This document shows positions 3,611 through 60,906 of a stretch of DNA of 64,000 nucleotides, piece after piece. The DNA comes from Patescibacteria group bacterium (GTDB taxonomy: Bacteria > Patescibacteriota > Patescibacteriia > UBA10025 > JAHIVO01): the NCBI GenBank assembly GCA_041650915.1, contig JBAZKE010000006.1:8961-72960 (forward strand). The letters are read 5' to 3'. Under the pieces are notes generated by a model. That model did not search any database. It saw nothing but the letters and a program-made list of their open reading frames with translations, and had not been told where the DNA came from. The position numbers and the translations under genes are program-made. How positions within the stretch are numbered: the first letter of the stretch is position 1; each line of letters begins with the position of its first letter.

Positions 3611-4405
3611 ATGGCTATTCAGCCGGGCGCAAGCCTGCAAAGCAAGTATGATCAGACCCGCAGTTATTTCCAGCGGCGAGAGGAATACGCTCTCACTGCT
3701 GCCACCGTCCTCGTGGAGGAAGGCCAGCTAGCGGTTCGTGCTGGGACTTCTCTCACGACCGTAACGACTTCAACCGGTGCTGCGCTTGAGATGCCGGTCG
3801 GCGTAATGCTTCTTGGGGAAATTGACGCCAATACTTTTACTTGGGTCGAGACTTTCACGATCCCTAACGCGGCAATTCCGACCTTCACACTCAAGTACAA
3901 CAACCTCGCGCCGTCGAACTACACGCTCGGTCTCGCTGATAACAGCGACATCTATGTGTACGACAACACCGCTGCCGGTCAGATGGCGCAGGCCAACCCG
4001 GCTCCCGCGGACAATCAGTTCTCTTGCACGGCCGCAACTGGCGTGCTGCGTTTCCACATCAACGACATTGGTCACTCTGTGACCGCGCGTTACCGGTGGA
4101 CCCTCACGACTCCGCAGTCACGCGAGATCGTACGCCAGTCGGCTGTGGGCCGCGGGTCAGAAAATACTTATCGCAAGGTAATTATCGGCCGCGGTAACAA
4201 CTGCCGAATTTACACTACGATGTACAGCCCGCAGGCACTCTGGACTCTGAATCTTCAGAGTGGTCTCCTGAACTCCCCGGCGCTGGGCGCGGGTGGCATT
4301 TGGTCGACCGTGACCCAGTCGACCACCGGCGTGCCATTTGGCCGTGTAATTCAGCTACCGAGTCTCAATGATCCCTACCTGGGCATTGAGTACACGACTC
4401 CTTAA
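3611..4405 (+). CDS. Virion structural-like protein, tandem paralog B (264 aa)
   Basis: RBS TAGGAGG. Homologous to the 2581..3384 product over its full length. Confidence 0.7.
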   Translation: MAIQPGASLQSKYDQTRSYFQRREEYALTAATVLVEEGQLAVRAGTSLTTVTTSTGAALEMPVGVMLLGEIDANTFTWVETFTIPNAAIPTFTLKYNNLAPSNYTLGLADNSDIYVYDNTAAGQMAQANPAPADNQFSCTAATGVLRFHINDIGHSVTARYRWTLTTPQSREIVRQSAVGRGSENTYRKVIIGRGNNCRIYTTMYSPQALWTLNLQSGLLNSPALGAGGIWSTVTQSTTGVPFGRVIQLPSLNDPYLGIEYTTP

Positions 4406-4445
4406 CTAACGGTTTAAACCGCTGATTTTTAGAAAGGATTCAATC

Positions 4446-5634: not shown

Positions 5635-8600
5635 TTGGGCGAAATTCTTCAGGTTATTATGAAAAATTTAGACTGGACTCCTGATACCGCGGAACAAGCC
5701 GGCGAGGCCATCGGCATCGCTTGGGATACAGCGGAATTTACACCGGAAGATTTGCTTCAGGGTATGAATGTCGAGCTTGAGCACTGTTCAGACCCAGATA
5801 CCGAAGTAATTACTTGTAATTCTGAAGATACTGCTCGAATCGCTTGGGCACACCTTAAAGAATCGTCCGCATATTATCGCAATCTAGCTAAAATGGAACA
5901 AAGCTTTAAAGAAGCCTCCGCCAGAACGGCCGCCGAGCTTGAACCCGAGGACTTGGCTAAAGCGCGCGGTCTAGAAAAAACTCGTCCTGTAGTTGACCCC
6001 TATGAAATTCGTGCGCGCGAAATTCTTAAAGAGCAAGGCAACGAGCAGCCGACAAAAAAAGAACTCGATGCAGCCTACGATTTAGCCTCACGTGAAGGGC
6101 GAAAGCCCGGCGCGGCACCGGCCCCAGAAGCCGCGTCCGAGCCAGTTAAAATCAAGCGCGGAAAAAAGGTCTATAAGGCGCCCAAGCAAAAAGCTGAAGA
6201 GCCCAAGCCCGACAAGCAAGAGTTCATCGCGGCTTTCCTGGCCGATTATGACCATAGGCGCAAGTCTTTTATCATTGATAGTCTGAATGCGCTACGCGCT
6301 GATAAATCTATTTCTAAAGAGCAGCGCGTTCAAGTAGGTAAAACTATCGCGGCCATGCAGCCCGAAGCTCTGGCGGCGTTTGCTTATTCTAAAGCACTTG
6401 CTGATTTTGAGACCAAAGCAAAAACTAAGGCACAAGAATCGGCTTTTCACACCAAAGTAAAACAATACCTCAAAGCGCAGGGTATCGAAGACTATACGCA
6501 AGAGCAATGGAGCGCGGCAGTTTCTGCGATCATCGCCCAAGAGCGCAAAGAAGCCAAAGAACTAGAGAACACCAATATAGAAAAAGGCACCAAGCATCTG
6601 CAAGAGAAGAAGGAAACTGTAGACCCAGAAGACGAACAAAATGATCAACAGGTTGCGGAGTTCACGCAGCCGCTAGTCACGTCTGCGGTCAGTCAAATCA
6701 AGTCTTTTGTCAAAAATCCAAAGGCGGAAGTCTGGACACAGTATCCTGGTGCAGATAAAACCCGGTGCTTCGTTTTAGATGTGTTGGTTCCTCGCGGTGA
6801 GCGCTACGCTGCACGCGTAGGTAATTATCTCAATATACCGGCTGATGTTGTGCTCGGTGCAATAGAATCATCCGGCGCAGCGTATAAAGAATACATTACA
6901 TACATCTCAGAGTTTAATACAGAACTCACCCAGGCTTTAACTGCAGCGTTTGAGGCTGAATTACCAAAGCTAGCACCGTACATAGATTTGGGTTTAGACA
7001 AAAAAGACACAGCGGATGCCGCCGACGATAAAAAAGCTAAACCGAAGATTAAATCCGATGTCCCCACACTTGACACCAAGCTCATAGGCTGGGAGCTGGA
7101 GATATTTGATACTGTAGCGTTTGGGGAATCTATTTCTGACGCACCCGAAGGTTTGCTTTTGGTTGCTACAATCGAAGAATCGTATATCGCCCATTGGTCC
7201 GCTGTGGACAAAGCGGCAATCAAAATTCTGCATACAGACATTCCTAAAACAGTTAAAAATCCAGGTAAGTGGCCTGATTGGGCAAAAACTGACAAATGGT
7301 TCGACGTCAGCACCGAGATGGCAGAACCCAGCGAAGCCGTGGTCGTGGCACAGCTTGCGAAGTACGCTGGCGGAAATGATTCCTACAGTCTAAGCGCTAG
7401 TTCGGCGCTCAAGCTCAAGCGTGATTCTGGTTCACCAGCGTACACTAAATATTTTGCTAAAAAGTTCGAAAATTTAAAGACTAAACCAGAAAAGACCGAT
7501 ACTCCGGTCATTGCGACAGAGATTTTCCGTGATTATTTAGAATTACCCGAATCAGATCCGCTACAGTCGCTAGCCGAAGCCATCGTTATGGAAAAAATGG
7601 GAGATATAGCGGAGCATCAGACAGCCAGAATACAAGATCAAGGATATACAGATTGGATGGTCCTGGTATACGATTCAGTCAAGCAGACTGTGATTCCTGA
7701 CGCGCCCAAAGGTCTATTGCTTTTAGGTATTATTTCCAAAAAAGATAAAGAACAGCACACTCAGGCGTTGGCACGACGCAAAGCCATTATCAATAGTGCG
7801 CAGGCTACAGGGGCACAGCAGCTTGAACTTTTTGGGCCCAATGCGGGGCGCGGTGAAGGCCAAGGTGTGGCTGAGTTTACCAAAAAGGCCGAGGCTGAAC
7901 TAGGACTTTCCGAGGATGAAGCCGATCTATGGCGCCAGTATTTCATTGTATCGTTGAAGCAAACTCAGCACACTCACGTGAAACCTATGCCGCGCAAACC
8001 AAAAAAATTCAAAACTGAAACAGGCAAGCAAGTGACTATGAAGCCCGACGAATCTGAATTCGCTGAAGATATTTCACAAATTGGTAAATCGGACGTCGAA
8101 ACCTACGACCAGCGTTACAGCAGCGTGAAGACGGCGGTGGTTAAGGACTGCAAAGAAAAAGACCTGGATGATCGCCCCAAGGCCGAGCAAAAAGTTTGCC
8201 TCTACAGCGAAGAGGGCAAGCTGCTCGGCCGGCATCCCACGGAAGAATCGGCGGAAAAGCAACGCCGCAAGGTCGAGATGGAAAAGCACTCGGCCTACTT
8301 CAAAGTCAATCCTCTGGCTTTCGTTTCGGCAGACGAAATTTCTGATTACTACGAAGAGCAACATCTCCGGATGGCCTATGGGTTCTATGACGCAGACCAA
8401 GCGCAAAGGGCCCAAGCCAAAGTAACGGCAATCTGGAAAATGCGCAAAGCTCGAGTTGGCGCAGAGTTGACCTATACCAAGCAAAACGGCAACGAAGTAG
8501 AATTCATCGGTACGGTGGACAGCGCGCGAACGTACCGAGGTACGGCTGGGCTGGATCCGGTAGCCATCACTTCCATCAATCCCTTTGAAGAATACGCCCA

Positions 8601-9384
8601 AGGCAAAATTGGCAACGACACGGCTGCACTGACCGCCGCACTGCAGTCTTGGCACGGAACGCAAACTAAAGTCGCTTCGAAAGGCAAAACCATGCTTAAA
8701 GTTAAAGCTTCAGCTCTTCTTCGCATTGCGGAACTCATTGAGGTCGATGCCCCGAGTAAAGAACAGATTCGTGCCGCTGGGCTCAAGTGGCTCGCCGAGG
8801 CAGTAAAACCACGACAGCGCACTGCGGCAGATCTAACTCCTCGCGTTGAGATGATGGACGCGCTGGAAGATCTAGGTATTGTGGTGAAGAACTTCCAGGA
8901 CGAAGGCAAATTTGTCGGCATGGTTAAAGATATCGGTAATGCCTTTGCCGCACAAAAAGACGCCATGGGTCTAAAACTGTGGAACGCGCTCAAGGCGGAG
9001 CTTTCGGCGCAGCTACGCGGAATGGCTGAAGATATTGGTTCAGGTGCTTCCGAGCAAGAAGGCTTCGCTGAGGCGCTAGGTGAAGCCATTAAAACCGCAG
9101 AAGGCAAAGTTCAGGCTTTCTTAGGCAAAGCCCAAGCCCAGCCCAGCGGAGTTGCAACAGCAGAAGTCAAGACCGCACTGAACGCTCCAGTATTCGCGCC
9201 ACCGCAGGACCCCACCACAGAACTGCAGAGTAAGCTAGCATATATCCTCAATACCATCGAAGACTACATTGCGCAATATGCAGGCGATGCCGCCAAACTC
9301 ATGGAAGTAAAAGGCGCGCTGGTTCGCGCTTGTGCTTCAGCCTATATTGATTTGAATTCACCGCGCGCCGCAGCCAAGAAATAA
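5635..9384 (+). CDS. Large hypothetical protein (1249 aa), K/E-rich with internal repeats
   Basis: Uninterrupted 3.75-kb ORF. Repeated DAP[EK]GLLL[VL] segments. AT-richer 5' end. Confidence 0.7.
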   Translation: MGEILQVIMKNLDWTPDTAEQAGEAIGIAWDTAEFTPEDLLQGMNVELEHCSDPDTEVITCNSEDTARIAWAHLKESSAYYRNLAKMEQSFKEASARTAAELEPEDLAKARGLEKTRPVVDPYEIRAREILKEQGNEQPTKKELDAAYDLASREGRKPGAAPAPEAASEPVKIKRGKKVYKAPKQKAEEPKPDKQEFIAAFLADYDHRRKSFIIDSLNALRADKSISKEQRVQVGKTIAAMQPEALAAFAYSKALADFETKAKTKAQESAFHTKVKQYLKAQGIEDYTQEQWSAAVSAIIAQERKEAKELENTNIEKGTKHLQEKKETVDPEDEQNDQQVAEFTQPLVTSAVSQIKSFVKNPKAEVWTQYPGADKTRCFVLDVLVPRGERYAARVGNYLNIPADVVLGAIESSGAAYKEYITYISEFNTELTQALTAAFEAELPKLAPYIDLGLDKKDTADAADDKKAKPKIKSDVPTLDTKLIGWELEIFDTVAFGESISDAPEGLLLVATIEESYIAHWSAVDKAAIKILHTDIPKTVKNPGKWPDWAKTDKWFDVSTEMAEPSEAVVVAQLAKYAGGNDSYSLSASSALKLKRDSGSPAYTKYFAKKFENLKTKPEKTDTPVIATEIFRDYLELPESDPLQSLAEAIVMEKMGDIAEHQTARIQDQGYTDWMVLVYDSVKQTVIPDAPKGLLLLGIISKKDKEQHTQALARRKAIINSAQATGAQQLELFGPNAGRGEGQGVAEFTKKAEAELGLSEDEADLWRQYFIVSLKQTQHTHVKPMPRKPKKFKTETGKQVTMKPDESEFAEDISQIGKSDVETYDQRYSSVKTAVVKDCKEKDLDDRPKAEQKVCLYSEEGKLLGRHPTEESAEKQRRKVEMEKHSAYFKVNPLAFVSADEISDYYEEQHLRMAYGFYDADQAQRAQAKVTAIWKMRKARVGAELTYTKQNGNEVEFIGTVDSARTYRGTAGLDPVAITSINPFEEYAQGKIGNDTAALTAALQSWHGTQTKVASKGKTMLKVKASALLRIAELIEVDAPSKEQIRAAGLKWLAEAVKPRQRTAADLTPRVEMMDALEDLGIVVKNFQDEGKFVGMVKDIGNAFAAQKDAMGLKLWNALKAELSAQLRGMAEDIGSGASEQEGFAEALGEAIKTAEGKVQAFLGKAQAQPSGVATAEVKTALNAPVFAPPQDPTTELQSKLAYILNTIEDYIAQYAGDAAKLMEVKGALVRACASAYIDLNSPRAAAKK

Positions 9385-12856: not shown

Positions 12857-14059
12857 ATGAAAATTACACCGGAAATCATGGCGGAGTGCAAGCATTACCC
12901 AGATGGTACTATAGGTGTACGAAATCGTAGCGGCAGAATGATAAAGTATGAATGCTGCGCGTCCTGTGCTGGGTGCGGCGAACCATTTTTATCTGAACAT
13001 TTCTACAAAAACGGACAGCGCGTTTTTAACACGTATTGCTCTGTTTCTTGTAGAAGTAAAAATATGGTTCTTTCCGACGAAACACACCACAAAATGGTGG
13101 TGTCGCATCTCGGTAAACCTGTTTCACCAGAAACGCGTAGGAAGTTAAGCGCAGCGTCTCGTGGTAGACCAATGCCCCTGCACGTGTCGGCTGTATTGCA
13201 CTCACCAGAGGCCAAACTAAAAGCCAGAGCAGGGCGAGACGCCCACGTGGCACTGCATGGTGGAAATTTAAAACCAGCACAGCATGCTGCTAAACACAAC
13301 CACTACCGACACTATATAAATAAAGCGGCAAACCGCGGTTTGATTTTTGAACTGACTAAAGATGAATTCTTAGACATAACATCTAAGCCTTGTCATTACT
13401 GCGGTGTAGCATCCAGCATCACAGTTAAAAATCATGCTTGCTGCACCACAGATGGTTTTTATGTCTGCAATGGCGTAGATCGCGTGGATTCAAGCAAAGG
13501 ATATACGCTGGATAACGTGGTTCCGTGCTGCACCCAGTGTAACATAGCAAAGTTAAATAAAAATATCGCTGAGTTTTTAATTTGGGTACTGAAAACGGAT
13601 TTGTTTTTACGTAATAAACCCACTAGTTTAACTTATTTCGGAGACATCATTGAGGCACAGCAGAGCGTTATGCGCGTTGTATTTGGTGAGCATAAGCGTA
13701 GGCGTAAGCACGGCAGTAAAGATTATATAGTCAGCACGCTGAGCATAATTGATTTTGCACGCCTAATAAGAACGCAATGCTTCTACTGCGGTGGAGGGTT
13801 ATCTAACGCGCGTGCACGCACTTACGGGCGTAACAGAAAACGTCCGGCTGATGGTGTAGTGCTGGAATACAATGGTTTGGACAGAATAGACCCCGATGGT
13901 GGCTATACCCTGGAAAATGTGGTTCCGTGTTGTGCAACGTGCAATAGAGCTAAATTAGATTACTCACAGGACGAATTCTATACCTGGGTAACACGCGTAG
14001 CCAACCACATTAGAAATACGCCAGAACTGTTTGATTTGGTCTCGTCCCATCTTTGTTAG
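12857..14059 (+). CDS. HNH homing endonuclease (tandem HNH_3-type motifs)
   Basis: Two copies of NGxDRxDxxxGYTLxNVVPCCxxCNxAKL. N-terminal Cys-rich segment. Markedly AT-rich compared with neighbours. Confidence 0.75.
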   Translation: MKITPEIMAECKHYPDGTIGVRNRSGRMIKYECCASCAGCGEPFLSEHFYKNGQRVFNTYCSVSCRSKNMVLSDETHHKMVVSHLGKPVSPETRRKLSAASRGRPMPLHVSAVLHSPEAKLKARAGRDAHVALHGGNLKPAQHAAKHNHYRHYINKAANRGLIFELTKDEFLDITSKPCHYCGVASSITVKNHACCTTDGFYVCNGVDRVDSSKGYTLDNVVPCCTQCNIAKLNKNIAEFLIWVLKTDLFLRNKPTSLTYFGDIIEAQQSVMRVVFGEHKRRRKHGSKDYIVSTLSIIDFARLIRTQCFYCGGGLSNARARTYGRNRKRPADGVVLEYNGLDRIDPDGGYTLENVVPCCATCNRAKLDYSQDEFYTWVTRVANHIRNTPELFDLVSSHLC

Positions 14060-27482: not shown

Positions 27483-28241
27483 ATGTTGCTTTCGGGCGTG
27501 TACAAGATTCAAAATACAGTTAATGGCAAACAGTACATAGGTAGTTCTGTGAATATACGAGAACGCTGGCAAGACCACGAAAGAAACCTGCGTGCCGGTA
27601 CGCACGCTAACGCCAGGCTGCAACACGCCTGGAATAAATATGGGGCAGACGCGTTTATATTTTCTATCATAGAGCTAGTCTCTCCAACCAAAGATGCTTT
27701 AATTGCACGCGAGCAAGCGTGGATAGATTTGCACAATACTGCTCATCGGGATGTTGGGTACAATATAAGTCCGACGGCAGGATCTTCTCTGGGCACCAAA
27801 TTTTCTGCGGAAACTTGTGCGCGCATGAGTAAAGCACAAAAGGGCAAAGTGCTCACGGAAGAGCACAAAAGAAAGATAGGCGCAGCGGCAAAAGGCAGAA
27901 AAGCGTCGGACGAAACTAAAATAAAGATTGGAAACGGTAGTCGAGGCAGAAAGCACACAGAGGAATGTAAAGCTAGAATCGGAGCTGCGTCCGCTGCTTG
28001 GACACGTGGGCCTGTATCGGACGAGACGCGCGCCAAACAAAGTGTAACGCGAAGAGCGAAACGATTGGGACATGGCGCCTCTAATGGCAGGGCAAAATTA
28101 ACAGAAGAACAAGTGATTGAGATCCGCAGACTTTACGCCACACGCGAATACACCAACGTTCAAATAGCGCAGCTTTTTGGCGTGTGCAAATCCACCATAG
28201 GCAGGATAGTACAGGGTAAACACTGGATTTTTGTAGCTTAA
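27483..28241 (+). CDS. GIY-YIG homing endonuclease with NUMOD3-type repeats
   Basis: GVYKIQNTVNGKQYIGSS...R...H. Repeated HKxKIG/ETKxKIG modules. AT-rich island. Confidence 0.85.
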   Translation: MLLSGVYKIQNTVNGKQYIGSSVNIRERWQDHERNLRAGTHANARLQHAWNKYGADAFIFSIIELVSPTKDALIAREQAWIDLHNTAHRDVGYNISPTAGSSLGTKFSAETCARMSKAQKGKVLTEEHKRKIGAAAKGRKASDETKIKIGNGSRGRKHTEECKARIGAASAAWTRGPVSDETRAKQSVTRRAKRLGHGASNGRAKLTEEQVIEIRRLYATREYTNVQIAQLFGVCKSTIGRIVQGKHWIFVA

Positions 28242-32188: not shown

Positions 32189-35100
32189 ATGGCAATCGGC
32201 GATATCCGGCTTACCAATTCGCGTTATGTGCGTCCCGGCGCTTACATTGGATTTGTGCCGCAGCCGTCCCCAGTTTCCCCGACGGGAAACCCACGCTATC
32301 CCTGCATCGTGGGCCGTGGGTCGCGCCTCGCACGGGTTAACGCCGAGCAGCACGTGCGTGCTCGCGTGTACGGTGAGCAGCTCACATTCACGTCTACGGC
32401 GCCGTACATCGCGTACCTGGACAATAACGCCAATCCCGACAAGGGTTTGACGCAGGTTTACGACTCCTCGGGGCGTCCTGTGCCTTCCGACAAGTGGGCG
32501 TTCCTGGTGAATCTCTCGGCCTCGGGTTACTACAACCGCGTGCAGATTGATTCCACGACGTTCAACAAAAACGTCACGTATTACGTGGAATACCAGTCGG
32601 TAGACCGCGGCGTGCTCGACGAGATGATGTTCGACGGTGTTCGCGAGATGCTGCTCGTCGGCGATGCCGAGGGGCAGAATAAGTACGTAGAGTTCACGGA
32701 CTATCGTGTGGTCACGTCGCTCGTGGGCTCCACCGTGGACCCGGACGCCTGCACGGCGGACACAGATAATACGTTCTACGCTAGCACCATCGTGCCGGCT
32801 GCACTAGTACCCGCTCCTGCTCCTGGCGCGGGTTCTGTCGCGCTAAACGCGGCCACCAATTACATTGGTGGGTATAACCGCAAATATGTGCTAGAGTGTG
32901 TGGCCGTCAACGGTGGTGTTTCAGCAGACTTTAGTCTAACTGTAACCAACTACTCCGGCGGTAACGCGCAGACGCCAAACGTGCCGTACGTCCCGGCAGC
33001 TACTACTTCTATTTTCCGGCGTATTTTCGCAGACCCGGCCACAGCGTTCTCGTTGTCCAACCCCGCGAGTGTTGGTGTGCTGTCTGGTTATCTGACCACC
33101 AACCCGCTTCCCAATTTCTTTGGGTCCGACGGAATCGTACTGGACATCGACGCGGCATTTATTGGCGGTGACGTAGGCATTACTTGGACTTGGATGGCGT
33201 ATGGACCGGGCAAAGTTGAATTTGCTTCGGCACATGACAATACTAACCAATACTCGACTGTTCTAGACCCGGTGGAGCTTGGTGATATTGACCCTGCACT
33301 AGCGGCCACCGCACAAACGTCGGGGGGTAAAATCACTGTTCATGCCGACACCGATTTTTCTGATACTTTGGACCGTAGCTATTTCCTGCACTGCAGCGCA
33401 TCCGGCGGTGCGGTGCCTAATCGTACGGCCACCATCACTTGGGCAGGGTACAAGGAACTTCCGTACACCACCGGCTCCATCGGTCTCGTAGAGGGTACTC
33501 CGGCTTCGTACCAGCGGGTGCTGCTGGAAAACGGAATCTATCTGACGTTTGCATTCGGAACGTCACACAACCTGGTGGACACTACCAACGTGCTAGCTTC
33601 GCCGGCCGCGTCTACACTTTCTAGTGCTATCACGCTGGCCAATGAAATCCGTACTGAATACGGCGAGCACGACAATAACACCGGTGGTGCTTGGCATGTC
33701 GCGGGCTCTGGAGCGCACCAAATCGTGGCTGCGGCTTCAGCAGACCTCGCGACTCTGCGGACACTTGCGCTGGATATCCAGACCAAGTACTCGGCGCACC
33801 TCGCTGACACAACTGAGCACGTCGTCGTTGATGCCATCTGGACTCTCGATACTGATCTGACCATCACGGCAGCGTCGGACCTGGCTGCGCTGGTCAATTT
33901 CCTGAACGATGTGCGTACCAAGTATACTCGGCACGGCGTAGCCAACGGATTTGACCTGGCAGACACCTGGCGCGTTGATGCCAAGGCAGCGCGGCGTGAG
34001 TTTACGGGTAAAGACGACCGTACCGTTACCCTGACGTTCAGCGCTCCTGTGGCCGCGACGTCCGTGACCGCAACGTACACGTCGTCCACTCTCGAGGGCG
34101 GTTGGGCCACCGAAACCATTTCGGATTACAGCGACCCCTGGTTTGATCTCCCGGACAACATCCGGCTCATGGTCCGAAACCTTCAGGGTTTCACTTCGAA
34201 CCCTGGCCCACCGCTGATTCCTAACACGCACGAGCGCTATGCGGCCAATGACGTCTTCACGTTCGCGACGCTCAACCACGATGAGATTGACTGGTCACTG
34301 GTAAATCGTGCGTCCGAGACCACGGATTCCTCAGATATTCGACAGGATACTCTCGGGACCATTACCGGTACTCCGCTGTATTTCTACCTCGTACTGCAGG
34401 AGACCCCAGAAACCGTGCTCAGGGTGAAGGACGCCGCTACCCTGCTGCCCATTTCTTACACCTGGATTTCTGATACTCCGTACATCGCATTTGCCTCCGA
34501 TCCTACAGTCGATGTCATCGTGGATTACGAGTACCGCGGCAACGAGCCGGACCCCGGTAATGCTTACTACATTACGGCGAACCGTATCCGTATCGACTCG
34601 GGCTCTGAGAATGAGTACGAGATCCCGCGGCGCTTCCTGAATCATGATGCTTCTCGTCTGGGTCTGTACCCCGCGGAGACCAATAACCATCTCTGGCTCG
34701 GCAGCGAGACCATGTGGGATGCCCGTCCGTTCGGGATTTACTGTGTGCAGGTCAAGAGCGCAGCTGGCGACGATACCTTCACGACCACGGACTATCGACG
34801 GGGTATCGATGCGACCGAGACCTCCAATGCCATCACGGACGTAATTCCGCTGTCTCACTTCGCGGTTATTCCGTATGCCAAAACCTCGATCGAGAATATG
34901 AACAACCCCTTCGAGGCGAAAGAGCGCCTCCTGTGGGTCGGTGCGCAGGTTGGAACTCAGGTGGGTGACGAATCGACAGCCAATACCCTGGTGTATTACG
35001 CGCGTCGCACTCTTCAGTGTAGCCCAAGCTCTCCCGGCAAGGGCAACATCATTCTGATTGGTAACAACGAAGCTACCCGGACCTACGCCCTGGAAGACGG

Positions 35101-35719
35101 TTCAGCGACTACCGTGACGCTCGACGGTTCGTACATCGCGGCGTACACCGCGGCTTTGGTAGCGTCGTTCCTGAACCCCAGCGACACCATCGGACGCAAA
35201 TCGGTGTCTTCATTCGACACCATCACAACGTTCAACGAGAAGGAATTGGTCCTTCTGGGTCAGGCTTCCATCACGTCGCTGGATTCTATCGGTACTGGTA
35301 TTTATCAGTACGTGGAGTCTGTGACCGTCGATACCACGGAACTCGCGCTGAACGAGATTTCGGCTCGTACTCAGGCACACTACGTCGTGAAGTACGTGCG
35401 GCAGAAGATGGACGAGACCCTGACGTATCTCGTTCCTCCTTCTCCTCTGGCCGGTGTTGCGATCATCACGAACCAGCTGGTGCTCTGCCTCAGCGGGCTC
35501 GTAGCGAGCGGCGTGATTGCGCCGTACGGCAGCGACACGAATCCTCCGACGATCCGGCAGATTAATCCGGACCAGGATGTGTACGTGTTCGCGGATGAGA
35601 TCGAGAAGACGAAGTATCACTTCTGGTATTACTTTAATGCCAGGTACCCGATCAAGCGCCTCTTCGGTCTCTACAGTGTTGATACCAAGTTCTGGCAGAC
35701 CCAGTCTGCTGGTCAGTAA
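32189..35719 (+). CDS. Giant structural-like protein (1176 aa) with internal A-x-x-I-R-T-x-Y-x-x-H repeats
   Basis: Strong RBS TAAGGAG. Three IRTEY/IQTKY/VRTKY repeat units. A terminator follows. Confidence 0.7.
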   Translation: MAIGDIRLTNSRYVRPGAYIGFVPQPSPVSPTGNPRYPCIVGRGSRLARVNAEQHVRARVYGEQLTFTSTAPYIAYLDNNANPDKGLTQVYDSSGRPVPSDKWAFLVNLSASGYYNRVQIDSTTFNKNVTYYVEYQSVDRGVLDEMMFDGVREMLLVGDAEGQNKYVEFTDYRVVTSLVGSTVDPDACTADTDNTFYASTIVPAALVPAPAPGAGSVALNAATNYIGGYNRKYVLECVAVNGGVSADFSLTVTNYSGGNAQTPNVPYVPAATTSIFRRIFADPATAFSLSNPASVGVLSGYLTTNPLPNFFGSDGIVLDIDAAFIGGDVGITWTWMAYGPGKVEFASAHDNTNQYSTVLDPVELGDIDPALAATAQTSGGKITVHADTDFSDTLDRSYFLHCSASGGAVPNRTATITWAGYKELPYTTGSIGLVEGTPASYQRVLLENGIYLTFAFGTSHNLVDTTNVLASPAASTLSSAITLANEIRTEYGEHDNNTGGAWHVAGSGAHQIVAAASADLATLRTLALDIQTKYSAHLADTTEHVVVDAIWTLDTDLTITAASDLAALVNFLNDVRTKYTRHGVANGFDLADTWRVDAKAARREFTGKDDRTVTLTFSAPVAATSVTATYTSSTLEGGWATETISDYSDPWFDLPDNIRLMVRNLQGFTSNPGPPLIPNTHERYAANDVFTFATLNHDEIDWSLVNRASETTDSSDIRQDTLGTITGTPLYFYLVLQETPETVLRVKDAATLLPISYTWISDTPYIAFASDPTVDVIVDYEYRGNEPDPGNAYYITANRIRIDSGSENEYEIPRRFLNHDASRLGLYPAETNNHLWLGSETMWDARPFGIYCVQVKSAAGDDTFTTTDYRRGIDATETSNAITDVIPLSHFAVIPYAKTSIENMNNPFEAKERLLWVGAQVGTQVGDESTANTLVYYARRTLQCSPSSPGKGNIILIGNNEATRTYALEDGSATTVTLDGSYIAAYTAALVASFLNPSDTIGRKSVSSFDTITTFNEKELVLLGQASITSLDSIGTGIYQYVESVTVDTTELALNEISARTQAHYVVKYVRQKMDETLTYLVPPSPLAGVAIITNQLVLCLSGLVASGVIAPYGSDTNPPTIRQINPDQDVYVFADEIEKTKYHFWYYFNARYPIKRLFGLYSVDTKFWQTQSAGQ

Positions 35720-40315: not shown

Positions 40316-43018
40316 ATGACGGTATTGGGCGGCACTCCTCCAGGCGGAACTGGCAGCGGTAAAGGCGGAAACCCGCCTGCAACCCCGTCTAACATCAATC
40401 TTGCTAGCAGCACGGCGTCGATTAATGCCGAAACCGAAGCCTTGCTGCCCAATACCAAAGCACTAGATCAAAACGAGGGTGCACGTGAACGCTTAGGGCG
40501 ACTACAGAAACAAAAGATACCCGAAACGTTCCTGGAATATTTAAAACGCGAAACAGAAGAACTTCAAAAAGCCACCGTGGCCATGGGGCAGTATCGTCAA
40601 TATGTCGGTCAAAGCTTTGAAGCGGTCAAAGGCTTCATGACCGAAATGCAGAACATGAATTCGTTGACTGCAATTTACACGAGAACCTTGAACCAGCTCG
40701 AGCACAGCACACAAACCTATACGTCGTCCATGCAGGCCAATACGGACAACATGGGGCAGGCAACAGAACAAGCCGATAGATTCTTTGAGGGTACCAGGGC
40801 AGCAGCAGCAGAAGCAGAAAATCTAGCTGCTACGTATAAAATGTCCTCGGAGGAAATCAACGCAGCGAGTCGCACGGCGCAGAAAATGTTCGCAACCCAA
40901 CTCGGGGCCATGGACGACGTGGGCCAGGGCATGAAAGACCTGCAGAAGAATTCAATAGTACTGGGTCGCTATCTTGGCGTTGATCAAAAAGAAGTCATGG
41001 AATCTTGGCGCGAACGTATGGAAGCGTCGAACATGACTTTGGAAGACGCGCAGCAAGAAACCGCGATGCTCACGAAGGTCACGGACCAGTACACCAAGGA
41101 ATTGACCTCGCTGAGCGGCGAGATGCTCAAGACGGCTAAAATCGGCAAAAAAGAGATGTTCGAGGCGACCAAGGCCATCAACAATGAGTTTAAAATCGGG
41201 GTGCCGAATGTCGTCGCGTATACTAACGCCATGGCCAAAATGGCCGTGCAGGCAGCTAAATTCGGTGGAACAAAAAATGAGCAAAAAGATGCCATGGAAG
41301 GCGTGCTTCGACTAGGCAAGTCGCTCACAACGGTGAAGGGCGAATTCGGGCTCATGGGTATGCTGGCGTCTGAAAAACTATACGCCCAGTTTAAGACGGC
41401 ACCAGAAACTTTGTCCAAAGGTCTACGTGAGCGCTTCAGTGCACGCGCCAGCATGATGGAGGGGGCACCCGACATCATGAAACGCCAGTACGCGATGGAA
41501 ACTGCTGGAGGGAGTAAAGAATTTACGCGCTTGGCTTTCGCTGAGTTAGCTGCAAAAGGTAGCGGAAATGTAGATCAATTAGCTGCACAAATACAAGAAG
41601 TTGCTGGTGGTTCGGCCATAACAGCGCGTATGCTCGCCAGTGCAACTTTGTCTAAGGATGAAAAGTCTTTCGACAAAGCATTCAGCGAGCTAGAAGAATC
41701 TAACAAAACTGAAGCACAAAAACAGCTCGATAAAGTGGAAGAGACCGTTAAAAACGGAGCGAAAACCAATACACTGCTGGGTAATGTCGTAAGTGAACTA
41801 CAAAAAATTCAAAAATACATGATGTATATGGCCGTAGGAAGCCCCATATTGTCTGCACTTGCCGGACCATTGGCTGGTAAGCTGCTCGGGGGTGTACTAG
41901 GTTTAGGCACTAAAGTCCTTGCAGGCGGCGCAGTGACCAGCGCAACTTCAACGACAGCAGCCGGAACCATTGTAACGGGCGGCAGTACTGCTGCGGCTAC
42001 GGGTGCCGGCGCGCTCGCAGCGATCAAGGCGGCTGCCGCGGCTGCGGCGGTCCCTGCTGCGCTGGCCGCAGGTGCTGCAGCTGTGGGCTATGTTGGGTAT
42101 AAAGCGTTCAAGGCTCACGAAGGCGATAAGGAAGACGAAGCGTCGGGCAGAAGAGCGCGTGGCGGGGCTAAATTCTCGAAATGGTTGACAGGGCAGGATT
42201 CCGTAGATCTAAACAATGTCGTTATGAATATGTCGTGGGAGGAATTAGCCAACAGGAAAAAAATGATCGTTGAGCTTAAAAAGGACGTAACTAGGCTAAA
42301 AAGTCTGGGCGACAAGATGACGGAAGTAGACAAAAAAGAGCTAGAACTACGTGAGGAAAAGCTCGCTAAAATACAGAAATCTATCAAAGCCATTACCGAC
42401 GCCGAGGCGAAAGAAAAAGCGTTCACCGACCAAGAGCTTAATGCACGCCATGAAGCCACTGTGGCAGAAACCGTGAAGCGCGGTTTTGCCAATCTGGACG
42501 TTAGAGGCGGCACTCAAGGTATGGTGGCATCTTTCCTTTCTGGTCAAGGCCAAGATGTCATGCGCGGCGACTTTGCAGGTAATATCGCTGCGGCACTCGA
42601 GGGAAGCGAAGGCAAAGCGCTCAAGGAAAAGCTCGGTGAGGTTGGATTTAAAGAGTTTACAACGGCGTTAAACAAAGAAACTATGATTAAACAGATGGGT
42701 ATAGCGACATACGCCGAAGAGGCAAGAGTGCGTCGAGGCAGTAATACGCAAATAGCAGAAGAATGGGGCAAACGCGGGCGTGGTGCGGCGTCCACCATCA
42801 TAGGGTTCACAGACGAAGAGCGTAAAGCCGTAAACAAGGGAACCAAATTGAGCATTTCGGCTGCCGCGGGAGATGACGGCAGCATTGCAATTCCCACAGT
42901 CGACGCCAACGGCACCATGACGATAGCTATGCCGTCGCAGTTCTTGAGAATAAACGGTAATGCGATGTCGACACAAATGTCAGATCTGCAGAACACCAAC
43001 AGCAAGCCCGGTCTGTAA
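40316..43018 (+). CDS. Putative tail tape-measure protein (900 aa)
   Basis: Long alpha-helical, coiled-coil-rich protein. A central G/A-rich hydrophobic segment AAGTIVTGGSTAAATGAGALAAIKAAAAAAA. RBS AGGTGAAG. Confidence 0.6.
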   Translation: MTVLGGTPPGGTGSGKGGNPPATPSNINLASSTASINAETEALLPNTKALDQNEGARERLGRLQKQKIPETFLEYLKRETEELQKATVAMGQYRQYVGQSFEAVKGFMTEMQNMNSLTAIYTRTLNQLEHSTQTYTSSMQANTDNMGQATEQADRFFEGTRAAAAEAENLAATYKMSSEEINAASRTAQKMFATQLGAMDDVGQGMKDLQKNSIVLGRYLGVDQKEVMESWRERMEASNMTLEDAQQETAMLTKVTDQYTKELTSLSGEMLKTAKIGKKEMFEATKAINNEFKIGVPNVVAYTNAMAKMAVQAAKFGGTKNEQKDAMEGVLRLGKSLTTVKGEFGLMGMLASEKLYAQFKTAPETLSKGLRERFSARASMMEGAPDIMKRQYAMETAGGSKEFTRLAFAELAAKGSGNVDQLAAQIQEVAGGSAITARMLASATLSKDEKSFDKAFSELEESNKTEAQKQLDKVEETVKNGAKTNTLLGNVVSELQKIQKYMMYMAVGSPILSALAGPLAGKLLGGVLGLGTKVLAGGAVTSATSTTAAGTIVTGGSTAAATGAGALAAIKAAAAAAAVPAALAAGAAAVGYVGYKAFKAHEGDKEDEASGRRARGGAKFSKWLTGQDSVDLNNVVMNMSWEELANRKKMIVELKKDVTRLKSLGDKMTEVDKKELELREEKLAKIQKSIKAITDAEAKEKAFTDQELNARHEATVAETVKRGFANLDVRGGTQGMVASFLSGQGQDVMRGDFAGNIAAALEGSEGKALKEKLGEVGFKEFTTALNKETMIKQMGIATYAEEARVRRGSNTQIAEEWGKRGRGAASTIIGFTDEERKAVNKGTKLSISAAAGDDGSIAIPTVDANGTMTIAMPSQFLRINGNAMSTQMSDLQNTNSKPGL

Positions 43019-43041: not shown

Positions 43042-43269
43042 ATGTCACAAAAACTTCGTAAGTGCATTCAACTCGGTAAAGTGGTGGTTCGTAATCGGAC
43101 TTCCGGCGAAGTCATTGTGTATTACCCACTGCCAGACGGCTCGCCAGCGACTGCCACCATTTCCCCCGGTGGAAGTATGGAACTAGCGCCCAAGTTCACC
43201 ACGCCGGCCATGTTGATGAAATCCAACCTGGAAGAGCTGGCCCGCAAAGGCCACGTGACTTTCATATAA
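43042..43269 (+). CDS. Hypothetical small protein (75 aa)
   Basis: RBS AAAGGA. Confidence 0.45.
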   Translation: MSQKLRKCIQLGKVVVRNRTSGEVIVYYPLPDGSPATATISPGGSMELAPKFTTPAMLMKSNLEELARKGHVTFI

Positions 43270-44150
43270 TGCAATGTCACATCCATGACAATGTTCCCGC
43301 CAGTGCAGATTTATTAGTCATTCACCACATTAAACCGCAAGCATTCGGCGGGCAAGACATACCTGAAAACCGTGTGATGCTGTGCGCATCATGTCACGAC
43401 GTTCTGCATAAAGCAGAACATAAATTATCCAAAGGAAAGACCGGAGAAGCACTAGATATTATCGATCGCTTTTTACCGAATCAGACTGCCAGGCAACAGC
43501 GTCTCCGTGCACTGATGAATTCTGTGGCCTCGGCGCGTAAGGCTTGGAAGACCAAGTCGAATGTTGTTCCGGAGGCTCAGGGTAAAGTTGACGACACTGT
43601 AATCGTACAGCTAAATCTTCCGATTTGGTTACACCATAGGCTAAAAACAACCGCGCAAGATCAACAGGTTGGGTTGTACAAGCTCTGCCTCCGGGTGCTG
43701 GAGCAATATGTCGTCAAGCAAGACATGCCAACCTTGGACCCGGCTATACCCGCGGCTCCGGCACCAGAAGTAAAGTTCATCGCACCGAAGCCAAATAAAA
43801 TAATCCAGATCTGGAATGTTTTGGATAAAGCCGACGCCATGGAACTCGAAACACGAATGTTGTCCGCGGGATCGAAAGAGCGCTATTGCGAGATCATGCA
43901 AAAGGCACTCAAGCTATCCCCGTTGCCCCGCCACTTAGAAGATAAAGATTTTAGTCTGGACGACGCGTTCGGGCTGCTGACATGTGTGTTCGACAAACTT
44001 AAAAAAGCGCAAATGCGCGGAGTCGACGAACTATACTGCGGTGTACTTTTGCTGGCGCTCAAGGGTTACCCCGTTACTTTACAAATCCAGGCAGAAGCTC
44101 AGCACTATAAAACAACAAAATGGTTATTGCATTTATTTCCTGCTGCGTAA
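43269..44150 (+). CDS. HNH nuclease domain protein (293 aa)
   Basis: N-terminal HHIKPQAFGGQDIPENRVMLCASCHDVLH (HNH motif). Confidence 0.6.
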   Translation: MQCHIHDNVPASADLLVIHHIKPQAFGGQDIPENRVMLCASCHDVLHKAEHKLSKGKTGEALDIIDRFLPNQTARQQRLRALMNSVASARKAWKTKSNVVPEAQGKVDDTVIVQLNLPIWLHHRLKTTAQDQQVGLYKLCLRVLEQYVVKQDMPTLDPAIPAAPAPEVKFIAPKPNKIIQIWNVLDKADAMELETRMLSAGSKERYCEIMQKALKLSPLPRHLEDKDFSLDDAFGLLTCVFDKLKKAQMRGVDELYCGVLLLALKGYPVTLQIQAEAQHYKTTKWLLHLFPAA

Positions 44151-51335: not shown

Positions 51336-52079
51336 GTGCGTTTATTGTGCGGAGGCACGAAGCAGCCGCAGTACTGCTGTAAAACGGCAGCACGCCGCCA
51401 GTGCGCGGTGCGGAGAACACCGGTGCTTACCAGCGATAAAACTGTAGATGGACGTTTGATTACTAGTTTGTCCCCTTGTAGTGAACGCAGAGTTTCTGTC
51501 AAATGCGACACGTGTGGCGTGATCAACACCACTAGTTATGCCAACTACAACCGGGCGCAAAAGACGACGCACAATGGATCCGGGCGAACAACGTGTAGAA
51601 AATGTGCAGTAACAAAATCGGCGCTAGCACGCAAAGGCAAACCACGCGCACCTAAACCAAAACTGCCGCCAGAACAATTAGGGGCAAACCACAAAAGTTG
51701 GCGTGGCGGCAGGTACATCGACGCAAACAATTATGTAATGGTACACCAGCCAGACAGAAGTAAAGCCAGAACAACCGGCTGGGCGCACTATCGTAAAGAA
51801 CATATCGTCGTTATGGAACAGCACATAGGCCGACGCCTGTTGCCCAATGAAACTGTACACCATATAGACGGAAACAAACAAAATAATGTGCTGTCCAATC
51901 TGTATTTAGTACACTCGCACGCAGAACACCGCAACGCGCACACGTCCCTGCAGCAAATAGGTTATGCGCTCATTAGAACCGGTATGCTTACGTTTGACCT
52001 ACAAAATGGGCAGTACATCGTGGGCGAAGCGCTTCAGCACCTGTTAGACCTTGCTAAAACAACTGAAGGGAACACCTGA
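51336..52079 (+). CDS. HNH homing endonuclease (247 aa)
   Basis: VHHIDGNKQNNVLSNLYLVHSHAEHRNAH (HNH motif). N-terminal CxxC...CxxC. AT-rich. Start codon uncertain. Confidence 0.65.
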   Translation: MRLLCGGTKQPQYCCKTAARRQCAVRRTPVLTSDKTVDGRLITSLSPCSERRVSVKCDTCGVINTTSYANYNRAQKTTHNGSGRTTCRKCAVTKSALARKGKPRAPKPKLPPEQLGANHKSWRGGRYIDANNYVMVHQPDRSKARTTGWAHYRKEHIVVMEQHIGRRLLPNETVHHIDGNKQNNVLSNLYLVHSHAEHRNAHTSLQQIGYALIRTGMLTFDLQNGQYIVGEALQHLLDLAKTTEGNT

Positions 52080-58222: not shown

Positions 58223-58498
58223 ATGTCAAAATACGATCGACGCCAGAAAACTGAATCTATTTCTCTGTTTGACATTCTTTCCGCGGTTGACGCCAGCGTT
58301 GACACGGCGAAAACGGTCGCGGAGCTTAACTCGGATCTTAATTCAGATAAATATAAATTCACATCAGCAGAGCGTGCGGTACTAGCTACACTGCAGCACA
58401 AATGCGTTCTGATCGCAGAGCAGCACGGTGCATTTTTGGATATGGTTCTGCGGTCTATGGACGACGTAGAAGCCGAGGTCGAGAAAAGCGAGGACTAA
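58223..58498 (+). CDS. Hypothetical small protein (91 aa)
   Basis: RBS AAAGGCAAAAC. Confidence 0.45.
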   Translation: MSKYDRRQKTESISLFDILSAVDASVDTAKTVAELNSDLNSDKYKFTSAERAVLATLQHKCVLIAEQHGAFLDMVLRSMDDVEAEVEKSED

Positions 58499-58893
58499 TG
58501 CGGCGCAAAAAGGAAAAGCAGGAACTCCCGAAACGTACTGCCCGGGGTAATGAACGCCGCGAGTTGGAGGGCTATGTTGGCGTCGACGAATACTTTGATG
58601 ACGACCCGCGTTCTATCGACGAGTACTGCGCCAGGATCCACTTAGCCTGCGAAGACGCACAGGCCTGCTGGCTCGCTCGGCATCCAGGCTGTGAAATCGA
58701 GCCAGGTACATTTTGGCTTAGACTCATGGAACAAGGCGTCTATGACCAAACCCGCCTGTACGGCGTTTTCTATTACTGGGAGGCAGAAGAAGACGCCGAC
58801 GAGTACGCAGAGACCCTGGCAGCCGCCCAGGCGACCAAAGCCGCACAAGAGCGCGAGCTGTACTTGCAGCTAAAAGCAAAGTTTGAACCATGA
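58498..58893 (+). CDS. Hypothetical protein (131 aa)
   Basis: ATG with GAGGA RBS overlapping the upstream stop. The track ORF 58402..58893 is trimmed to this start. Confidence 0.45.
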   Translation: MRRKKEKQELPKRTARGNERRELEGYVGVDEYFDDDPRSIDEYCARIHLACEDAQACWLARHPGCEIEPGTFWLRLMEQGVYDQTRLYGVFYYWEAEEDADEYAETLAAAQATKAAQERELYLQLKAKFEP

Positions 58894-59148
58894 CCAAAGT
58901 TCAATTTGAGTCAACCACCCCTCCTACATGGAGAGACGCGAAAAGGTCTCTGGTTGACTAGGGAACATCGAAAGGTGTAGCAGTTGGTCGAGAGAAATAC
59001 ATACACACCCGTGGACGCTCCTCAAATCTACGGCTCTGTGGATCTGTCGTTAAAAAGCTCAAGGGGTAGAGCTGGTGCGCAGATCTTAAAAACCTCTTCC
59101 AACAATCCCGATGAGGCTCTCACTTCCCTTTCGAGGGAAGGGCAGGAC
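58894..59148 (+). ncRNA. Candidate IscB-associated omega RNA scaffold and left-end structured region
   Basis: About 250-nt non-coding stretch immediately 5' of the IscB PLMP start. Dense nested hairpins (58909-58959 AGTCAACCA...TGGTTGACT with an inner GAGAC/GTCTC stem; GCTC...GAGC about 59080; CTTCCC-TTTCGA-GGGAAG 59120-59137). The reading frame is formally open through it. Confidence 0.3.
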
Positions 59149-60906
59149 TTGAGAGTACCTGCCGTTTATGTTCTTAATCAACGCGGCGAGCCATTAATGC
59201 CCACAACGCCAAGGAAAGCACGAATGCTTCTCCGGGAAGGAAAGGCCAAGGTAAAGACTAGAACTCCGTTTGTAATTCAATTGCTTGTTCCAACCGGAGA
59301 AACCAAACGGCCCATCGTTTTGGGAGTAGACGCTGGATACCTCCACGTTGGCCTGTCGGCCGTAACGGAAAATAAAGAAGTATACGCCGCGGAAATCACG
59401 CTTAGGTCTGATATTGTAGCCTTAATTTCGACTCGTAAAATGTATCGACAAACACGAAGAAGTAGAAAAACCTGGTACAGACAGCCGAGATGGTTGAATC
59501 GAGTAAAAAGCAAACCCAAAGGCTGGCTAGCTCCGTCAATTCAGCACAAGCTCAATAGCCATGTAAAACTGGTCGAGCGCGTTAAACGAATTCTTCCCAT
59601 TACCTCAGTAATAGTGGAAATAGCTGCTTTTGACATTCAGAAAATCAAAAATCCAGATATACAGGGAGTAGAGTACCAAGAAGGTGTGCAAAAAGGTTTT
59701 ACAAACGTGCGAGAATATGTGCTGTACAGAGATGGACATAAATGCCAAGCGTGCAAAGGAAAATCCAAAGACAAAATTTTGAAAGTAGTGTTGAACGCCC
59801 ACCACATAGAGTCTAGAAAAACAGGCGGAAATCGACCTGATAATCTCGTTACACTCTGTGCTGAGTGTCATAAGCTTTACCATAACGGTACCGTAAACAT
59901 TAAAACTAAACCCAGCAAAAGTTTCAAAGCCGAAGCATTCATGACGATGGTGTGGCGACGATTGGTTGAACTATTAGGTGCCGCAATCCGATATGGCTAC
60001 GAAACCAAACAAGCTAGAGCAGACGCTGGACTTAACAAAAGTCATGTTAATGACGCTTTTGTCGTCGCGGGCGGATGCTACCAGAACAGAACAGTTCCAT
60101 TTTTAGTAAAACAAGTTAGGAAACAGAACCGAAAACTTTACAATGGACCACACTCCGGTCGGCGCAGCACCGCTGCTCGATTTGTTCGTGGGTTCCAACG
60201 ATACGATAAAGTCCTGTACAAAGGAGTGGAATGTTTTGTGTTTGGAAGAAGAACCAACGGTTATTTCGACGTCCGAGATCTATACGGTGCTAGAATACAT
60301 GACGGCGCAAAAGCCAAGGACTGTGTTTTGCTGGAAACAGCAAGCACTTTATTAACCTGTACCCTAAGAGGTGGCACTCCCCTGCCTAAAGGCAGAGGTC
60401 TCCATGCCGAAGCCCAAATGAAAATCAGAACTGGTTTTGTCAGCAATTCGAGTAGTTCTAGCTTTGTCGTGCAAATCCGGCAGAGTCCGTGGGAAAAATC
60501 CGAGCCCAAATTGTTGCTTTCGCCGGAGCAACTCGCATGGCTAGAGTCTCAAGGATTTCGGTACTGTGCGCACACGTATCCCTCGCGAGTTGAGGAAACT
60601 GGGATTCTGGAAATGTACCCTGGCGCCGAAACGCCTGAAGCAGCAGAAAATATGTGGCTGTCGGTGATTTGTAACCAAGACGAAGTCATCGACGGTTTGG
60701 TCCGGCAGGGCATTCCATTTTGTGCGTCATGCCACTACGGACACGAGACTGTGGTTTGGCGCGCTGGCGATAAGCGCGTTTATGCATTGCCAAATTTAGG
60801 GCACGAATACGAAACATACCAAGAGGAGAAACTTTTCAAAGCTAAAGTCAAAGTAGCATCACAAACCGTAGCAAGCATCAAGAAAAACGGGTGTAATCTC
60901 GTTTAG
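59149..60906 (+). CDS. iscB: IscB-like RNA-guided nuclease (PLMP, RuvC-I, Arg-rich bridge, RuvC-II, HNH, RuvC-III, TID), fused in-frame to a C-terminal MKIRTGFVSNSSSSSF-family module
   Basis: VYVLNQRGEPLMPTTPRKARMLLREGKAKVKTRTPFVIQLL. LGVDAGYLHVGLS (catalytic D at about 59329). RRSRKTWYRQPRW. VIVEIAAFDIQ. HNH: CQAC...HHIESRK...N...LCAECHKLYH. SHVNDAFVVAGG. TID: FQRYDKVLYKGVECFVFGRRTNGYFDVRDLYG. TTG start at 59149 with GAGGGAAGGG RBS. The track ORF is open from 58984. Confidence 0.8.
   Translation: MRVPAVYVLNQRGEPLMPTTPRKARMLLREGKAKVKTRTPFVIQLLVPTGETKRPIVLGVDAGYLHVGLSAVTENKEVYAAEITLRSDIVALISTRKMYRQTRRSRKTWYRQPRWLNRVKSKPKGWLAPSIQHKLNSHVKLVERVKRILPITSVIVEIAAFDIQKIKNPDIQGVEYQEGVQKGFTNVREYVLYRDGHKCQACKGKSKDKILKVVLNAHHIESRKTGGNRPDNLVTLCAECHKLYHNGTVNIKTKPSKSFKAEAFMTMVWRRLVELLGAAIRYGYETKQARADAGLNKSHVNDAFVVAGGCYQNRTVPFLVKQVRKQNRKLYNGPHSGRRSTAARFVRGFQRYDKVLYKGVECFVFGRRTNGYFDVRDLYGARIHDGAKAKDCVLLETASTLLTCTLRGGTPLPKGRGLHAEAQMKIRTGFVSNSSSSSFVVQIRQSPWEKSEPKLLLSPEQLAWLESQGFRYCAHTYPSRVEETGILEMYPGAETPEAAENMWLSVICNQDEVIDGLVRQGIPFCASCHYGHETVVWRAGDKRVYALPNLGHEYETYQEEKLFKAKVKVASQTVASIKKNGCNLV
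60418..60906 (+). other. C-terminal extension of the IscB ORF, equal to paralog A of the MKIRTGFVSNSSSSSF family (163 aa), with internal ATG
   Basis: Begins MKIRTGFVSNSSSSSF, like the two genes downstream. In the IscB frame with no intervening stop. Could instead be a separate or coupled gene. Confidence 0.5.

Follow-up and report, generated by a model that had tools for sequence, protein, structure and literature searches.

In a 64,000-nucleotide (nt) stretch of DNA from a Patescibacteria group bacterium (assembly GCA_041650915.1, contig JBAZKE010000006.1; the whole analysed stretch is referred to here as the window and positions are counted from its first letter), the 1,508 bp from 58910 to 60417 are read, with a probability of about 80%, as a non-autonomous insertion sequence of the IS200/IS605 type (ISC-type) that carries only an iscB gene and an omega RNA and that lies in a phage genome, where it would act as a selfish RNA-guided homing element. 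IscB is the transposon ancestor of Cas9. A first-pass annotation made from the letters alone had proposed that the open reading frame (ORF) running from 58894 to the TAG at 60904-60906 encodes an IscB-like, OMEGA-type RNA-guided nuclease, and the IscB/OMEGA identity of the protein is correct and the finding real. The frame itself falls into three parts, with guide and omega RNA at 58894-59148, IscB at 59149-60417 and a phage gene at 60418-60906, such that its assignment to IscB stands for the middle part while the first part is guide and RNA and the last 162 codons belong to another gene. As IscB insertion sequences go the element is typical, its location in a phage being incidental, and it is not a new kind of system.

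The IscB Protein

The domain order of the protein is that of IscB, running PLMP, RuvC-I, bridge helix, RuvC-II, HNH, RuvC-III and a putative C-terminal region for interaction with the target-adjacent motif (TAM), with the HNH domain inserted in the RuvC fold. The motifs quoted in the first-pass annotation are all present in the translation, and the split-RuvC and HNH architecture is borne out by profiles and structures. The Pfam model PF14239 (RRXRR, covering PLMP, RuvC-I, bridge helix and RuvC-II) matches over its whole length (positions 1-174 of 174, E=3.1e-62), PF01844 matches the HNH domain (E=3.6e-7) and the NCBIfam equivalog model NF040563 (guided_IscB) scores 330.3 bits against a cut-off of 175. 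With phmmer the solved IscB structures (OgeuIscB 7xht/7utn, 11hr and 9liq) were matched at E~1e-41, and at 8e-57 when a family profile was used instead of the single sequence. An AlphaFold (AF2) model of the protein (pLDDT 67) was compared with the PDB using Foldseek, the ten best matches all being IscB/IsrB complexes (top match 8csz_D, E=2e-26) with Cas9 and RuvC structures far behind (Cas9 at E 2e-7 or worse).

Numbered from the TTG at 59149, the RuvC residues D61 (GVDAG), E157 (VEIAAF), H299 and D302 (both SHVNDAF) are invariant in 40 homologs, and the motifs align with GIDPG, LELNRF and DHYLDAY of the solved IscB 11hr. Likewise, the HNH residues C199, C202, H218, H219, N232, C237, C240 and H241 are invariant in the 40 homologs and align to the HNH domain of solved IscBs. 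The split-RuvC and HNH architecture is complete and is not that of a lone HNH domain; an isolated HNH domain and catalytic residues that fail to align, the two outcomes named in the first-pass annotation as telling against IscB, were therefore not encountered. The C-terminal region, which is modelled as a beta-rich domain, shows strong conservation across the family (R344...F373 invariant); the Foldseek alignments to IscB extend over ~500 columns, yet sequence searches leave this region unaligned to the solved IscBs. The protein has more than 8,000 homologs, typically ~60% identical, and where a source gives them a name it is "RNA-guided endonuclease IscB". It does not belong to a Type II CRISPR-Cas9 system, in that no repeat array was found, the window holds no Rfam RNA other than the omega RNA described below and the protein, at 423 amino acids (aa), is without a REC lobe.

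Translation most likely starts at the TTG at 59149 (M-R-V-P-A-V-Y-V-L-N...PLMP) behind a Shine-Dalgarno sequence of the AAGGG type, the GTG at 59011 being the start that gene callers pick in relatives. The closest relative of the protein (P0002, 80% aa identity) is encoded by an element with its own HEARO RNA and a different guide, at a locus termed L002 here. The contig of L002 is unrelated and 59 kb long (JBAZJO010000006 / Ga0265297_10001331, binned as Patescibacteria).

The Omega RNA and Its Guide

On the same strand as iscB and ending 25 nt ahead of the TTG start lies an RNA of the Rfam HEARO family, which cmscan matched over model positions 1-211 of 211 (100.1 bits, the gathering score being 83; E=1.5e-20). 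It is the sole HEARO in the window and has the position of a cognate omega RNA. The first ~85 "codons" of the ORF as originally drawn are therefore an RNA gene plus guide and not protein. Both the element and the HEARO consensus begin with GTCAA (TTGAC on the other strand), the transposon-encoded motif (TEM), which differs from the predicted TAM at two positions.

The predicted guide, CCAAAGTTCAATTTGA, consists of the phage DNA that separates the element from the stop codon of the preceding gene, its length of ~16 nt being taken from published IscB work. The similarity to L002 stops at the border between guide and scaffold, the flank there being different, and the 16-mer occurs only once in the window. 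The gene upstream (58402..58893) runs in the same direction as the element and ends 16 nt before the scaffold; a promoter scan found no sigma-70-like promoter locally. The upstream ORF (58402-58893) and the frame of 58894-60906 form one reading frame that is split by a single TGA (58891-58893), and this sharing of a frame is probably due to chance. Recoding of TGA was considered and dropped, as TGA clearly terminates neighboring genes that are then followed by a Shine-Dalgarno sequence and an ATG.

Extent and Ends of the Element

The DNA similarity between the window and L002 starts exactly at 58910 (GTCAACC...) and the flanks that precede it are unrelated, the pattern that marks a constant scaffold adjoining a guide particular to each locus. 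On the distal side the similarity passes through the hairpin, fades over the next nine nt and is followed by an ATGAA shared by both loci. It is this comparison, together with the common architecture of the distal ends of relatives and the point at ATGA where multi-copy families diverge, that sets the element at 1,508 bp. Its ends are sharp, with GTCAA at the omega side and, at the other, a covarying hairpin and nine spacer nt (60409-60417) abutting ATGAA (Table 1). The predicted TAM thus abuts one end while the related TEM lies inside the other, and there is no target-site duplication.

Table 1. Coordinates of the iscB element, its parts and its immediate flanks in the window.
Feature	Position	Strand	Remarks
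Predicted guide segment of the omega RNA	58894..58909	+	CCAAAGTTCAATTTGA; adjoins the HEARO scaffold on its 5' side
Omega-RNA scaffold (Rfam HEARO RF02033)	58910..59123	+	Also the guide-side transposon end (right end, RE, in IS200/IS605 terms)
IscB coding sequence	59149..60417	+	423 aa from TTG 59149; alternative start GTG 59011; no stop codon inside the element
Subterminal imperfect hairpin, omega-distal transposon end (left end, LE, in IS200/IS605 terms)	60373..60408		GGCA-CT-CCCCTGCC-TAAA-GGCAGAGG-TCTCCA-TGCC
ATGAA, predicted target-site/TAM motif abutting the element	60418..60422	+	Reads TTCAT on the opposite strand; supplies the start codon of the phage gene that follows
162-aa phage gene	60418..60906	+	Heads a row of three tandem paralogs; continues the IscB frame

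The distal ends (on the right as the window is read) were examined at 79 IMG/VR loci and at 80 loci of GTDB genomes. Most relatives have a common end made up of GAAAGGAGG, an arm, TTCCTCCCC, a stem-loop, GGGT-TCC, the second arm, ~8-9 variable nt and ATGA. Across 51 such ends (50 relatives and the window's own) three helices have 81.8% of cells paired against 54.5% in shuffled alignments. The covariation score of the hairpin is 0.588 against 0.164 for shuffles, a value reached by 0 of 500 shuffles and compared with 0.05-0.145 for slid partners, the signal of the outer helix being inflated as the elements were chosen by a perfect 5-nt arm complement, with the inner helices unselected. The helices were specified by us, RNAalifold on the MAFFT alignment giving only 4 pairs, and the single-sequence DNA fold of the window's own end was no better than that of shuffled sequences (z = -1.1 and -0.7).

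The 5-mer following 72 distinct elements is ATGAA in 53, ATGAT in 12, ATGAC in five and ATGAG in two, the search having required ATGA such that only the fifth base was free. In multi-copy families, for example the eight copies in Duodenibacillus, the copies are identical up to ATGA and diverge right after it. Read on the opposite strand, ATGAA is TTCAT, which is the TAM published for the Geobacillus IscB GstIscB (PMC10055086).

The composition of the element also sets it apart, its GC content being 0.461 against 0.520 for the rest of the window, in agreement with the first-pass annotation, which had remarked on the lower GC. The L002 copy is likewise low (0.44 against 0.525 for its contig), so that in both contigs the element lies ~6-8 GC points under its surroundings, as would be expected for an element that moves horizontally.

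Relatives, Selection, and the Empty Site

Between the window and L002 the iscB genes have a ratio of nonsynonymous to synonymous substitution rates (dN/dS) of 0.107 at a dS of ~1.1, while the omega scaffolds are 90.7% identical where 57% of synonymous sites differ (pS 0.57). Purifying selection has therefore acted on both the protein and the omega RNA. The L002 contig (JBAZJO010000006.1, 1-16748) itself looks like a phage or another mobile genetic element, with three tRNA genes, many small co-oriented ORFs and an HNH_3 gene, and a TnpB gene (OrfB_IS605) lies ~4 kb upstream of its IscB element.

Viral contigs in IMG/VR hold at least 179 confirmed relatives of this IscB, retrieved with six peptide patterns alone and some of them present in two copies per contig; IscB in viral contigs is common and not rare. 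One of these contigs (L019, IMGVR_UViG_3300037067_013660, 197 kb) is from a related phage, its major head protein being 51% identical to that of the window and the neighboring virion genes being conserved. Its IscB (4001-5203, 54% identical) belongs to a different element just upstream of the structural genes (from 5635), so that this phage lineage has been invaded independently a second time.

The site before insertion can be reconstructed as ...GAACCATGACCAAAGTTCAATTTGA joined directly to ATGAAAATCAGAACTGG... and was sought in several collections. IMG/VR gave neither relatives of the upstream and downstream genes for an empty site nor the reconstructed 18-mer, an exact look-up of the free-standing 162-aa product gave no record and a 24-mer look-up in GTDB genomes gave no match. 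A 30-mer from the omega scaffold was found in JGI metagenomes in the L002 contig only. The closest homolog of the downstream gene (L088, 53% identical) has an unrelated gene upstream.

The Downstream Gene and the In-Frame Fusion

The gene that starts at the ATGAA is the first of three tandem paralogs, which begin at 60418, 60915 and 61294. Homologs of its 162-aa product are free-standing proteins of 155-197 aa that share the N-terminus MKIRTGFVSNSSSSSF in the alignment, the best match having 53% identity over 98% of the length, and in the related contig L088 the homolog is a separate gene with its own Shine-Dalgarno sequence (aggattaaatATGAAAGTC). IscB homologs end 10-25 residues past a conserved LLE(S/T)A, whereas the window frame runs on through the ATG at 60418 into MKIRTGFVSNSSSSSF. 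As the homologs are free-standing and the gene is separate in the related contig, the joining of IscB to the phage protein is a consequence of insertion and not an ancient domain architecture; the in-frame fusion is a by-product of landing site and frame.

Where the stop codon falls varies in the family: it can be a TAA in the hairpin loop, the TGA of ATGA or a codon beyond. In most IscBs it lies in the hairpin loop, ahead of ATGA. Two viral IscB elements from IMG/VR (L022, from 5214 onward, and L028) are also without a stop codon inside the element and read through ATGAA, running 362 and 285 codons, respectively, into the next ORF, such that fusion of IscB to a neighbor recurs.

In 48 of the 72 elements, an ORF of at least 60 codons starts at the ATG of the ATGA next to the element; taken over every ATGA site in these loci, a generous control, the share is 28%. 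The simplest reading of this bias toward start codons is survivorship, in that intergenic ATGA(A) sites would mostly be start codons and co-orientation would be needed for guide production. Selection for an ATGA stop/start overlap that couples translation was also considered and was dropped, the frame of the ATG relative to iscB being near uniform.

Phage Context and Assembly

The phage context named in the first-pass annotation is confirmed by a major head protein in the window (phrog_2522, E=5e-36) and two virion structural proteins, alongside genes for ThyX, an ATP-dependent DNA ligase, an RNA ligase and a metallophosphatase. No tRNA was found in the window. No close phage relative was found in GenBank, where blastn of an 8-kb region gave two trivial matches inside iscB only. 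Three very large ORFs (5635-9384, 32189-35719 and 40316-43018, of 1249, 1176 and 900 aa) have essentially no family matches, the single one being DUF5661 at the N-terminus of the first, and the phage backbone is largely uncharacterized. At least four classical homing-type nuclease genes lie in the window, of the EndoVII/HNH, GIY-YIG plus NUMOD3, HNH and HNH_3 kinds (12857-14059, 27483-28241, 43269-44150 and 51336-52079), so that besides IscB the genome is heavily colonized by selfish nucleases.

The window corresponds to roughly 9000-72999 of contig k141_863847 (78,120 bp) in ENA assembly ERZ27247363. Both junctions of the element were reproduced with 0 mismatches by a second assembler (Logan, SRR8542065), whose contigs reach 97 nt and 478 nt into the element; as the two assemblies agree at both junctions the insertion is real. 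The two Logan contigs (SRR8542065_560198 and SRR8542065_840519, handled here as L085 and L087), which come from the same sample or a sister one, end within the element, at 59006 and 59940 of the window. This suggests either that the sample contains further copies or variants of the element, perhaps in the genome of the host, or a presence/absence polymorphism.

Proposed Mechanism and Alternative Explanations

The element is most likely a selfish RNA-guided homing element that would cut element-free copies of its own site, and not a weapon of the phage. Part of the IscB/TnpB biology on which this rests is said to come from the work of Altae-Tran in 2021. The mechanism follows established IscB/TnpB biology, including that set out for IscB in Geobacillus (Meers et al., 2023). 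Read-in transcription from the co-oriented upstream phage gene would yield an omega RNA whose 5' ~16 nt (CCAAAGTTCAATTTGA) serve as guide. The complex of IscB and omega RNA would recognize CCAAAGTTCAATTTGA only where the TAM ATGAA follows it, that is on an element-free copy of the phage genome, arising by TnpA excision or belonging to a co-infecting element-free relative. Both strands would be cut, by HNH and RuvC, and recombinational repair from the element-bearing genome would copy the element back, as restorative or non-restorative homing. The occupied site would be immune, having GTCAA in place of ATGAA and so differing at two positions, and moves to new ATGA(A) sites would need a Y1 TnpA in trans, presumably from the host. 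Spread of TnpB by non-restorative homing has been reported for plasmid populations, and a 2026 review proposes it for co-infecting phages in theory only (PMC13565253). No paper was found that demonstrates such homing for IscB in a phage.

Several observations weigh against reading 58910-60417 as an insertion sequence that homes in this way. No match to Y1 TnpA (PF01797) was found on any called gene of the contig beyond about its first 3 kb, which leaves no source of TnpA in cis over that part. The outer arm of the hairpin is only 4 bp and the internal loop is shortened relative to the family consensus. The start codon is uncertain, with TTG in the window and TCG at the same codon in L002, and IscB has no stop codon of its own and carries a C-terminal extension of 162 aa. 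Over the 16 nt that lead up to its ATG, the reconstructed empty site shows no obvious Shine-Dalgarno sequence, unlike the two paralogs and a homolog of the 162-aa gene, which have strong ones. An element-free version of the locus was not found in the searches described above. As regards TnpA, the first-pass annotation had seen none nearby and had suggested an IscB-only element; this part stands, while the absence itself is the rule, tnpA being nearby in only ~1.5% of iscB genes (Meers et al., 2023, PMC10055086), and is typical rather than peculiar.

Taken together with the different frames in which the sequences of the window and L002 lead into ATGAA, the read-through into the next gene, the non-ATG start codon that is not conserved in L002, the shortened outer arm and the lack of TnpA in the examined parts of the contig would also fit an inactive relic, stranded without TnpA, with its stop codon lost, a weak start and a non-functional IscB fusion, and kept as deletion is rare. 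Such a relic is unlikely in view of the catalytic and family-invariant residues, all of which are intact, and of an omega RNA that is full length and above the Rfam gathering score. The dN/dS of 0.107 and the strong conservation of the omega scaffold indicate that the element was functional up to the recent past, and where the stop codon falls varies naturally among family members, L022 and L028 also reading far into the next gene.

The homing reading has also to be set against domestication, in which the phage would have co-opted IscB and its omega RNA to cut the DNA of its host or of a competing phage, for counter-defence or superinfection exclusion, or to serve in RNA-guided regulation, and the element would no longer be a selfish transposon. 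A phage-encoded nuclease could bring a competitive advantage, and cutting of an element-free competitor would exclude it as well, such that the outcome overlaps with that of homing. Prophage-encoded domesticated relatives of TnpB (TldR) do exist, but TldRs have lost the transposon ends and the nuclease residues (bioRxiv 10.1101/2023.11.30.569447), whereas the window retains both ends, the TEM and the TAM. As for every insertion sequence copy, the guide is no more than the neighboring flank, with no second match in the window, there is no array and there are no extra guides, the GC content is foreign and the nearest relative, 80% identical, lies in an unrelated locus with a different guide. On these grounds domestication is very improbable, and the suggestion in the first-pass annotation of a domesticated copy used for counter-defence finds no support. 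That the assembler joined a bacterial IscB element to phage contigs is next to negligible as an explanation; the breaks in the Logan assembly of SRR8542065 suggest a repeat or polymorphism, but both junctions recur without mismatch in the contigs of the second assembler and the insertion falls precisely between two genes, with a canonical ATGAA site and a canonical GTCAA end.

A bolder proposal goes beyond homing at a single site. It holds that this clade of IscBs targets the ATGA(A) at the start codons of co-oriented genes as an insertion strategy and that the element acts as an RNA-guided gene drive in the phage population. It is a joint proposal, in which the fusion of IscB to the 162-aa protein would act with the omega RNA during co-infection to cut element-free sibling or related phages at ...CCAAAGTTCAATTTGA followed by ATGAA, converting or excluding them, and as such it is put forward as tentative and rather doubtful. 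If true, start-codon targeting would let the element ride host or phage transcription for its guide while leaving the downstream frame intact.

Setting that proposal aside, the window offers a clean natural case in which a phage carries an IscB/omega-RNA element that is intact, with ends resolved to the base pair, a predicted 16-nt guide and an ATGAA TAM, and is suited as a test case for OMEGA-driven homing between co-infecting phages. It also adds a compact IscB (423 aa) with a defined predicted TAM to the catalog of editing enzymes. The precise insertion at the start codon of a gene, giving an in-frame ORF of IscB and a phage protein, is a mildly interesting particular.

Comparison With Known Systems

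In the IS605-family elements of Geobacillus the omega scaffold of IscB comes from the transposon RE with the 5'-adjacent flank as guide, and guide production depends on transcription that reads in from outside, with a bias of upstream genes toward co-orientation (Meers et al., 2023, PMC10055086). The TAM is TTCAT beside the LE, single-bp changes in it abolish cleavage and the RE motif differs from it at two positions (PMC10055086). Judged from its sequence, the window element agrees with each of these points. Elements of the ISGst5 type (Geobacillus stearothermophilus; PMC10055086) likewise have iscB only, an omega scaffold upstream with the guide just outside the element, TTCAT as TAM, a TEM two positions off the TAM, a co-oriented upstream gene and a structured subterminal end. 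They differ in lying on a chromosome rather than a phage replicon, while the window copy is without its own stop, is fused in frame to the next gene and showed no cognate TnpA in the parts of the contig examined.

OgeuIscB (7xht, 7utn and 8csz) has the same domain order, catalytic motifs and HEARO-class omega RNA as the window IscB, the two being matched by phmmer at E~1e-41 and by Foldseek at E=2e-26 with a TM score of ~0.58. OgeuIscB is however longer, with 496 aa against 423, the identity in the structural alignment is ~24% and the C-terminal TAM-interaction region is unaligned at the sequence level. The TAM of OgeuIscB is more degenerate than the ATGAA predicted here. The L002 element is the same as that of the window in its end architecture, ATGAA flank and low GC relative to its host contig, and differs in flanks and guide. 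The L002 IscB ends at a TGA that overlaps ATGAA, whereas the window frame differs at that point, so that the ATG is in frame.

The free-standing homing endonucleases of phages (T4 Seg/Mob, GIY-YIG and HNH) resemble the window element in the predicted outcome, a break in an element-free co-infecting genome that is repaired by copying the nuclease gene. In these enzymes it is the protein that finds the target, whereas the IscB element would use a guide RNA and a 5-nt motif. Unlike them, the window element has transposon ends and could also move by means of TnpA.

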